A DNA stretch of 64,000 nucleotides from Schmidtea polychroa. Lineage: Eukaryota. Positions 31,501 through 41,033 of this stretch are shown piece after piece; position 1 is the stretch's first letter, and each line of letters starts with the position of its first letter. Both the position numbers and the translations under genes were made by a program. A model generated the notes under the pieces. That model did no database searches, was not told the origin of the DNA, and worked only from the letters and a program-made list of their open reading frames with translations. Where the stretch lies: NCBI GenBank assembly GCA_044892525.1, contig CM097887.1, positions 44,020,001-44,084,000 of the forward strand, in the 5' to 3' direction.

Positions 31501-31833
31501 GACAGGGCTTACAATTTTTTGGATATCAAGAATGGTTTCGAGGATATTCTGAGCTAATAAGAGGTGAGTAGAGAGGCTATCGTCAAGAAGCGGGTCAATG
31601 AGTACAGCAAGTTTACGATGTTTGTCAAGTAGAAAGAAGAACCAGTTGTCTTTACCATCGGACATGGGCATGATAATCTCATTCCAGTGAGCAAATTCAG
31701 AGAAAGGAAAGGTGGCAAAGAAGGTTACATAGTTATGCTGAATAAGTGCATTTCCTATGAATGGGTCTACAAAAATAGAAGAGTTTTTCAAGGCATTTGA
31801 AAAGATATATGCCTTGATTGCATGTTGTGACCA
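28567..31833 (-). CDS. Element A: Ulp1-like domain, RT, CCHC knuckle, RLE endonuclease
   Basis: KGVKQGCPLSMTLF, LAYADD, CRHCHAHPETPAHIFNHC, KPDL...ILDIKVPF...KY. The frame is open from the codon right after the TGA at 31834-31836. Confidence 0.93.
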   Translation of the reverse strand, partial: WSQHAIKAYIFSNALKNSSIFVDPFIGNALIQHNYVTFFATFPFSEFAHWNEIIMPMSDGKDNWFFFLLDKHRKLAVLIDPLLDDSLSTHLLLAQNILETILDIQKIVSPVQIVLQNPAYPRCFVPTDSAFYICHFIECLIKCKKLTCPNVTNMINNIKTTINNYNYCKLPNDDVRKFRPFINCLIINLNNNLIEWDAALSEIERINGSINPHKYITKEVSDIIHKNYKVSKELVFTKRQKYKFAPKEEISKILNNQIKTHTPNMDHILKLFASKTSDCIFNLNYQYPTLSESLTIIPFDIDDIKSIFCQLDNTAPGTDKISLSDWRKITPNFELILALCNNILRNSKSPICWKSFRTRLILKAGKAEISHEANSWRPISIMNTAYRIFASLMNNRLLEWISTGNLLTSNQKAICAPDGCAEHNLILHLIKDSSYRKKTDLHIVWLDIADAFGSIPHELIWHTLSGMGLHPTTIALLQDMYNNVQTYFDCEGEKSDYTPIYKGVKQGCPLSMTLFCLSIDFILRSVLQTHPFLFHNHNISILAYADDIVLISDSYPNIKSALSLTVSLATKVNLRFKPSKSGYFHVDHDCSYQPILLYGETLPKIDDSNMYRYLGVDFSHKTKHCIKERLDSAIQDTNKILNSHLHPSQKINAFKVFIHSRLNFTFRNCVINHNILDSPRNILRNSEIQQYGFDLQIKQGIKRSIGDKIMQLNDNFLYAACKLGGLGLVSSIDEYLIQSIVQLIRALNSSDLNFKTLITAELIEARGQGDLNVALSWLNGQLSKTYPTFSIFSKFKKSARRLLLKYGISTKIIMLEDLLQLEIKYKSRINYFSLGNVDRTSAELHSIIGLIHAERWCAMKCQGYMAKAISESNIADYFFKSDILPDAQFLFLIRARNNLLKLNYSPHRLKTNKSILCRHCHAHPETPAHIFNHCQARINARRNKHDNVLETVANFLISINYEVDIEKIPEGTNSTLKPDLLLKSKRNKSIHILDIKVPFDSRENYDNSRRNNYNKYKELGEEIGRLHKCPYTLHAFVVGTLGSWDKNNDSILKIIGLSNNEIKELAKIACVAAINSSYQIYRQHIYKN

Positions 31834-39824: not shown

Positions 39825-41033
39825 TCATGCAGCCTCCCTATCAATATTATTAGTAAATAGGATATTGTCAGGTATGTCCCTATTTATGATTTCATTATTT
39901 AGAGGTGATAGGATTGCCTCTTGCGTATCCAGAATATCATTAAAAAGGTTATTTTTAGTATTAATATTTACGTTATTACTGTAGTCATTATTCACGGGGC
40001 TATTCGAGGTCTCCTTATTGGGGTGATGATCCTCAATATGGTTTTTGGAGTCCTGATATTCTATCCACTCTCCACAGAAGCAATTAATTTTTAGATTGAT
40101 GTCGAATTTTAAGTTTTTATGATGTTTTATCATATGTGTATTTATTGTATCTAAGGGTGTGTCAATGTCGAAGGATTGGAAGCACTTGTTGCAGTTTTTG
40201 TTTAGATTGTGGCATAAAATACGGTTTGCGGAAGTAATTTTCAGGGTAATAGTCTTAAGGAAGTCCTTGTTTACACTACAGTGGTGCTCAAATTGGTCGA
40301 TGTGGTTATATAGGTTTCTAAGGGTGATGGTGTTCAAGATAGATCGGCTTCCTTCCCCTTTGGGTCTACATTGGTGGCAGTCGATCAAAGAGTCGTAGGT
40401 TATAGCGATGTTGTGAATTTCTTGGGCGTGTGACCTAATCCTATCAATATCAGTGGCAGAAATTTGTCCACAAAAAGAAGTATGGTGGCATCCACGGCAC
40501 TGTAATTTGCCCCGTAGATCAAAGTAGTATAATATTTCATCATTTATGTCTTTGGACATTGTATCTTTATTTATTATAGTTTTTCTCGTCTTTATGAGGT
40601 CTAAGGTGGGGGGTTTAAGAGTGTACGTTTTACCTCTAACCTCTAGGCTTTTTTGGAATTTTATGTCTTTTCTGTGGTGGATGGGAGTGGATGTGGTTGC
40701 GTATTTTGGTGTCTCTTTAGCAGAGGGTATAGTGTCCTTCAGGTTTATAAGGTTTGGTGATTTACGTTCAGTGTTTTCGACAGGGATAAGCCTTTTAGGA
40801 ATAGGGTATGATCTATCAAGGTCAATGTTTTCGGAGGAATGAAAGTTGTAGGTTTTCTTTTCTTGCCTAACAGGGGTTATGGTTGCAGAGTCATCTAGCG
40901 GTGATGGTCTAACTGAGGGATATATTTTGGGTTCCTCGATTGAGTCGGTAGGTAGGGTAAGGTTATAAGAGTTGGATTTCTCAGGCAGAGGAGGTGAGGT
41001 AATAAGTATTTGAATAGATTGACTTGCATTTAA
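39825..41033 (-). CDS. Element B N-terminal ORF: S/P-rich linker plus zinc fingers
   Basis: Frame is open from about 41033 through MSKDIND...CRGCHH...HAQEIH...CHQC...CFCG...HIEDHH to the TGA; probable homopolymer frameshift near 41035. Confidence 0.8.
   Translation of the reverse strand, partial: LNASQSIQILITSPPLPEKSNSYNLTLPTDSIEEPKIYPSVRPSPLDDSATITPVRQEKKTYNFHSSENIDLDRSYPIPKRLIPVENTERKSPNLINLKDTIPSAKETPKYATTSTPIHHRKDIKFQKSLEVRGKTYTLKPPTLDLIKTRKTIINKDTMSKDINDEILYYFDLRGKLQCRGCHHTSFCGQISATDIDRIRSHAQEIHNIAITYDSLIDCHQCRPKGEGSRSILNTITLRNLYNHIDQFEHHCSVNKDFLKTITLKITSANRILCHNLNKNCNKCFQSFDIDTPLDTINTHMIKHHKNLKFDINLKINCFCGEWIEYQDSKNHIEDHHPNKETSNSPVNNDYSNNVNINTKNNLFNDILDTQEAILSPLNNEIINRDIPDNILFTNNIDREAA

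Follow-up and report, generated by a model that had tools for sequence, protein, structure and literature searches.

The in-frame TGA codon that separates two long open stretches in a pair of Schmidtea polychroa non-LTR retrotransposons, here called A and B, is a real feature of a whole clade that extends much further than A and B, and comparison across that clade suggests that ribosomes likely read through the A and B codon at low frequency to give the full-length enzyme. The two elements lie on the minus strand of a 64,000-nucleotide stretch of DNA (contig CM097887.1, positions 44,020,001 to 44,084,000), which we call the window and whose numbering is used throughout. Both are NeSL-type (R5/LIN-like) restriction-endonuclease non-LTR retrotransposons.

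In element A the TGA (31834..31836; EKEST*WSQHAIKAY) falls on a conserved Ulp1 tryptophan codon, and in element B it is at 39825..39827 (DREAA*WSQHSINAF); a first-pass annotation had placed both codons at these positions, correctly. The same frame is open for 982 codons upstream of the TGA in A and 404 in B, and for 1088 codons downstream in each, with no gap, so that it is open from the very next codon as that annotation had said; the first ATG after the stop, at codon 55, does lie within the Ulp1-like domain. ORF1 of element A (31837..34407, minus strand) is of low complexity, with C2H2-like motifs near its end (recognized by pattern only) and no Pfam family; its similarity to another long copy runs up to about 34407, and the open frame continues to 34782. 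ORF1 of element B (39828..40999, minus strand) is 5′-truncated here; its four C2H2-like motifs fall some 85-224 residues ahead of the stop. A 50-nt piece at 41032-41081 that is 96% identical to part of the A ORF1 region (~33672-33721) adjoins B's truncated 5′ end. In the longest A/B-clade copies, four C2H2-like motifs lie within the last ~230 residues before the stop, and a Pfam search of eight ORF1s gave no family above the cut-off.

ORF2 of element A (28567..31833, minus strand; 1088 codons, TAA end) encodes a Ulp1-like domain, reverse transcriptase (RT), a CCHC finger and a restriction-like endonuclease. Its Ulp1-fold domain occupies approximately 31324..31833, in which Asn stands in place of the catalytic His and Ser in place of the Cys, and its RT lies at 29983..30717 (PF00078, residues 373-617, E 1e-31). 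ORF2 of element B (36558..39824, minus strand) has the same layout, length and TAA end, with the Ulp1-fold domain at approximately 39315..39824 (fold prediction resembling yeast Ulp1, and likewise without the catalytic His and Cys) and the RT at 37977..38723 (PF00078, residues 368-616, E 1.5e-28). The CCHC finger and the PD..D.K endonuclease in both were read by motif, and the initial 330 residues of B ORF2 gave no match in a protein search. The A and B proteins are indeed clearly diverged, as first described: ORF2 is 61.5% identical and the ORF1 ends are 33% identical. The window also contains, on the minus strand, a Gypsy-type LTR element (44804-54793) that encodes, within a single frame, Gag, a Monjiviricetes-type fusion glycoprotein, an aspartic protease, RT, RNase H and an integrase, with the env-like region between gag and pol; a TAA within the fusion domain and a TAG that falls between protease and RT break it. 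A piece of a host gene with a RanBP1 domain and a TAG end lies at 21415-22410 (minus strand).

The class assignment of A and B follows from the order RT, CCHC finger and PD-(D/E)xK restriction-like endonuclease (PF00078 plus motifs), together with a Ulp1-like domain 5′ of the RT, which is found in B as a fold match to Ulp1 and in relatives as PF02902. Our tree holds no named R5 or LIN proteins, and the R5/LIN link is indirect, via lineages H and N: these have the LIN9_SM 28S site and fall with A and B in one clade with 100/100 support. The 5′ junctions of H and N are at the 28S site of the rRNA gene, and A and B are dispersed.

The TGA is kept across the copies of both elements. A junction pattern in which the stop codon was left free found 243 matches in the genome, and the reversed control pattern found none; among the 100 matches listed, the codon is TGA in 98 and TGG in 2. 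In the comparison across copies that the first-pass annotation had proposed, a sense codon is not the majority state among the matches listed. By locus, the junction motif was matched at 29/30 A-like loci (28 TGA, 1 TGG), and all 30 B-like loci have TGA (28 in register and 2 by eye after indels). The A/B codon is thus not a chance mutation.

Conservation of the surrounding nucleotides is more limited than had been proposed. The 16-nt string at the junction is identical in A and B, as claimed, and their ORF2s (3.27 kb) share one other identical run of at least 16 nt; the identity does not amount to conservation as such and is partly coincidence, since the third positions +9, +12 and +15 vary among 21 A/B-clade representatives. 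In the same representatives, position -2 is C in 21/21 and position -1 is A in 20/21; the codons preceding the stop in the clade are Ala, Thr or Pro codons, and their third base is A in ~26% of cases elsewhere. Because +9, +12 and +15 vary, what stays invariant is a C(A)-TGA-TGG-TC core (CA-TGA-TGG-TC at 31829..31838 in A and at 39820..39829 in B, both minus strand), and the remainder of the 16-nt identity reflects the conserved W-S-Q-H residues. The context was also rightly called non-canonical, in that A/B have UGA-UGG and the type II motif (UGA followed by CUA or CGG) is absent there; the A/B subclade acquired this state secondarily, however, the sister lineage E having TGA-CTA. Folding after the A/B stop is not unusual (z -1.6 to +0.8), and none of the five degenerate codons among the first 22 after it is conserved. 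A and B carry the weakest readthrough signal of the series and are its least well explained member.

The wider series comprises 13 deep lineages in which the junction is readable, nine in this genome and four in metagenome contigs of other organisms. They were assembled from genome searches and fetched stretches, the metagenome members (L181-L184) being the closest four among 80 loci. In each of the 13, a single TGA divides one frame into two long open parts. Lineages AB, E, F, G, H, I and J of the genome, and L181 and L182 of the metagenomes, carry the TGA on one and the same codon of Ulp1; it is followed by CTA in E, F, G, I and J and by CTC in H, and L181 has TGA-CTAG and L182 TGA-CTT, both at the Ulp1 Trp codon. 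A short decayed fragment of a third, J-like family within the window (61000-61200) has its TGA, followed by CTA, at 61101..61103 on the plus strand, at the same domain position. In an LG+G4 tree (no mixture model) built from 31 RT-endonuclease rows, all TGA lineages fall in one 21-row clade with support of 100/100; A and B group with E (100/100) and N and K group with G, H, I and J (100/100), the deeper order not being settled. RT regions of lineages that keep the in-frame TGA are only ~30-50% identical. The metagenome locus L184 (498-2123, plus strand), a branch distant from A/B, has no Ulp1 domain, yet it has an in-frame TGA, in the context TGA-TGG-TCT, of which A and B share TGA-TGG-TC.

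Several relatives were left outside the 13. In lineage M, TGA-CGG lies 138 codons upstream, and every copy seen belongs to a single amplified, chimeric unit; the first Met of this lineage is also the start of database protein P0089, which fits but is no proof. Lineage K has Tyr at the site, and its upstream part is broken in every copy seen. L410, a single copy, has a 3-nt deletion that removes the stop, and another TGA upstream. There may be stop-free relatives: protein P0006 has Glu at the Trp column and 23 residues upstream of it, and P0103 has Trp there and 153 upstream residues, including fingers. Large tandem arrays of nested fragments from several such families occur in G000 at C1 29.6-30.0 Mb and 271.4-271.6 Mb and on C19, C23, C37, C82, C94 and C99.

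The residue that the stop replaces can be read from the comparison. In an alignment of 11 lineages, the stop column is Trp in lineage O, and this Trp aligns to Trp48 of yeast Ulp1 chain 1euv_A, presumably Trp448 of the substrate tunnel in the usual numbering. The fold predicted for B after the stop matches Ulp1/SENP proteases (2hkp, E 1e-7; 1euv_A, E 2e-7). In the structure model of B, residues 37-101 upstream of the stop are at low confidence, so the model does not show upstream residues packing into the protease. The His-Asp-Cys triad is incomplete in A and B (Asn and Ser) and in E (Thr and Ser), and the catalytic His and Cys are kept in the eight other aligned lineages; the stop has thus outlived protease activity in the A, B and E subclade. 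One lineage O copy (L164, minus strand) has a 1535-codon ORF2 with apparent tandem Ulp1-like repeats, of which only the first has the His and Cys, and no finger motif was found in its ORF1.

Three lineages have a sense codon at the Trp site and a TGA upstream of it, in the same frame and between long open frames. Lineage N has Arg at the site; its TGA-CAA-CCA lies 169 codons upstream and follows a run of 1276 open codons. This shifted TGA is also present in a diverged copy, and CAA-CCA matches the CAR-YYA motif. In lineage O the site is Trp and the TGA lies 35-41 codons upstream; of 12 stretches or fragments fetched, 11 show it and the other has CGA. In all, 43 of 44 O junctions have TGA, and many copies have 2300-2450 open codons and a single TGA. 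L183 has TGA-CAA 19 codons upstream of the Trp site, after 734 open codons. The place of N among TGA lineages suggests that the upstream stop was gained and the one at the old site lost. The fingers of N are downstream of its stop, and the longest A/B-clade copies have 1083-1470 open codons before the TGA (their 5′ start is not mapped); the short product is therefore not the finger-only protein that the first-pass annotation envisaged.

The internal stop is TGA in 15/15 representatives (13 lineages, AB taken three times), and the same 15 ORF2s end in TGA in only four cases, two of these ends possibly being premature. In a census of 44 RT frames longer than 900 codons (copies that are not independent, with most O subfamilies missed by the motif filter), 27 of the 31 R5/LIN-type frames start behind a TGA, against 2 of 13 unrelated RT frames; the four R5/LIN-type exceptions are broken copies, none with more than 24 open codons upstream. 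The type II context UGA-CUA occurs in E, F, G, I, J and L181. In the eight lineages with Leu directly after the stop, its codon is CTA in 6/8 (p ~0.002) and CTN in 8/8 (p ~0.05) relative to Leu usage in the lineages' own ORFs, in tests that treat related lineages as independent.

These frames bear on whether the TGA might simply be a true stop, in dead or non-autonomous families copied by a stop-free master, or whether UGA might encode selenocysteine or be read generally as sense. The two TGG copies of A/B and the possible stop-free relatives fit a master copy, but ORF2 is intact and conserved behind the stop in many young copies that have 2300-2450 open codons and a single TGA, and no stop-free long frame was found among the 31 R5/LIN-type RT frames. 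As for sense UGA, neither the A nor the B ORF2 has a further TGA (they use 13 and 12 TGG codons, respectively) and several ORF2s of the clade end at TGA, observations on which an alternative genetic code was also rejected. A search for SECIS elements (Rfam) in the unmasked parts of window positions 26500-44000 gave no match, and the Rfam SECIS/ribozyme search gave two chance-level matches only. We regard this set of explanations as largely refuted already and extremely improbable.

Separate synthesis of ORF2, whether ribosomes reinitiate or start internally at a non-AUG codon immediately after ORF1, has a precedent in the overlapping UAAUG stop-start of SART1 (described in the available part of PMC3894237), and the A/B context does contain AUGAUG, with A at -1 in nearly all representatives. 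Those AUGs, however, are in the -1 frame, which is open for only 7-34 codons and to a variable length, and a stop-start at AUGAUG in A/B is ruled out on that ground. The first in-frame Met after the stop is not conserved, lying from 6 to 359 codons downstream, and in lineages N and O it lies beyond an intact protease domain. Moreover, reinitiation needs no shared frame, no zero spacer and no TGA, yet all three are seen in 13 of 13 lineages and at several positions. We therefore think separate initiation unlikely, although it is the least unlikely of the alternatives to readthrough.

Lineage O, in which the context of the stop is poor (UGA-A), offers a different kind of signal. Folding after its stop is strong (z -3.5 and -4.1), and among the first 22 codons 7/9 degenerate codons are identical in four subfamilies with 54-79% protein identity, against 33/380 overall (p ~1e-6, for an interval chosen after the folding signal had been seen); another alignment gives 7/10 frozen degenerate codons against 17/303. 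The frozen codons form both arms of a stem that begins 6-10 nt after the stop. Of its pairs, 11/17 are invariant, three have one-sided changes and none a two-sided change; there is thus no double compensatory change in the O stem, and a shuffle control does not favour it, so that it rests on invariance and complementarity and not on covariation. E, G/H and I/J have no frozen codons right after the stop. In one copy of lineage I (L172:2491-2640, plus strand) the sequence after the stop folds strongly (z -4.5); related copies fold differently, and the codons there are not frozen.

The long stem near the O stop could also serve A-to-I editing, by which some transcripts would have their UGA decoded as UGG (Trp), and the position of the stop on an ancestral Trp codon and the fact that both exceptions among the 100 listed A/B copies are TGG point the same way. 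Editing is nonetheless improbable, and more so than separate initiation: the UGA-CUA and UGA-CAA contexts are readthrough motifs, the stop is away from the Trp position in N, O and L183, the O TGA is outside its stem, no structure covers the A/B stop, and the exceptional junction codons in the other families are TCA, TAA and CGA. Among contigs of four sequencing runs that were compared with the A junction, one of 832 nt from a run of presumed RNA spans it without gap or joint; contigs cannot show editing, and we give this one no weight.

Spliced-leader trans-splicing occurs in flatworms, and splicing or trans-splicing that removes or bypasses the stop, giving an ORF2-only or fused mRNA, would draw on it. 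Against this, coding conservation extends up to the stop from both sides, and there is no stop-less processed class among 94 junctions; we give this explanation almost no weight.

Readthrough of the UGA is the simplest account of a single frame without spacer, a codon that is always TGA, known readthrough contexts, several stop positions and the O stem. The readthrough proposal of the first-pass annotation is accordingly supported by comparison (in the kept TGA, the contexts, the shifted positions and the O stem) and corrected in its details. Under readthrough, most ribosomes would stop at the TGA and release a free ORF1 protein, long and of low complexity with zinc fingers at its end, which may coat the element RNA. 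A small fraction would place an amino acid at the UGA and continue, giving ORF1, Ulp1 domain, RT and endonuclease as a single chain. The residue inserted at UGA would be Trp, Cys or Arg, and Trp insertion would restore the ancestral residue. Structural protein would thereby outnumber catalytic protein at a high and fixed ratio, as in the gammaretroviral gag-UAG-pro-pol arrangement, and in most lineages fingers would be joined to the enzyme only in the fusion protein. In the A/B subclade, UGA-CUA would have become UGA-UGG; A and B thus lack the C at +4, and the conserved 5′ CA may help instead. The stop, its frame, conservation, contexts and shifts of position and the frozen 3′ codons of O are read directly from the sequences, and from their comparison we infer readthrough itself, how rarely it happens, which residue goes in and what ORF1 does.

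We also lean, with less confidence, towards a broader reading, in which the whole of this ancient clade of restriction-like-endonuclease non-LTR elements uses programmed UGA readthrough and has converged on the gag-pol plan. The leaky stop would then move as a module: it would have disappeared from the Ulp1 tryptophan and come back upstream on several occasions, with a different stimulator each time (UGA-CUA, UGA-CAR-YYA, a 3′ stem, or 5′ CA plus UGG), and in protease-active lineages Trp insertion would complete the substrate tunnel. If a clade-wide leaky stop is correct, an R2-group element has gained control of a ratio like that of ORF1 to ORF2 without a second start site, and the lineages make up a naturally occurring allelic series of such signals in a host in which readthrough seems unstudied. 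There is also a consequence for annotation: intact copies with the TGA look like pseudogenes, and gene callers start the protein after the stop in 16 of 27 relatives examined, so that the annotated proteins lack the zinc-finger region.

R5 of Girardia tigrina, reportedly described by Burke et al. in 2003, is said to have two ORFs, and its junction may have been remarked on there; NeSL-1 is reportedly due to Malik and Eickbush in 2000. Those original descriptions and Repbase lie outside the literature that we searched, within which we found no report of readthrough in non-LTR elements. In the available parts of PMC3894237, PMC3636483, PMC7650587, PMC2790886 and PMC13517186 there is no mention of it, and in those of PMC4640811 and its supplement S6 the phrase 'stop codon' does not occur and there is no readthrough model.

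With the R5/LIN families of Girardia tigrina and other planarians, which are placed in the NeSL clade (PMC4640811, as far as available), our elements share RT, CCHC finger and restriction-like endonuclease, and the 5′ junctions of H and N coincide with the LIN9_SM 28S site; a difference is that A and B are dispersed. The nematode elements NeSL-1 and Utopia-1_TSP have a Ulp1-like cysteine protease domain 5′ of the RT, and families of Utopia in general code for a single protein (same source and portion). The Ulp1-RT order is therefore shared, whereas in our elements the frame is broken by a TGA, and the catalytic His and Cys are missing from A, B and E. R2-group elements have a single ORF, according to the available parts of PMC3636483 and PMC3894237, an organization not seen here, where the TGA is present in 27/31 long frames and the rest are broken.

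The closest parallels to the stop itself are viral. Type II readthrough, at UGA-CUA or UGA-CGG and often with a 3′ stem, is used by alphaviruses, tobraviruses and furoviruses, and a UGA-UGG case is known in sorghum chlorotic spot virus (both from the available part of PMC3159437). Our elements differ in being non-LTR retrotransposons, most of whose lineages are without a conserved 3′ structure, and resemble these viruses in the UGA-CUA of six lineages, the spacer and putative stem of lineage O and the xxA codon before the A/B stop. Moloney murine leukemia virus (MoMLV), with its gag-UAG-pro-pol (available part of PMC13517186), differs from the elements described here, which have UGA, no pseudoknot that we found, a cysteine and not an aspartic protease, no LTRs and a stop whose position varies; what the two share is a stop codon at the front of the protease, with one frame running through it.
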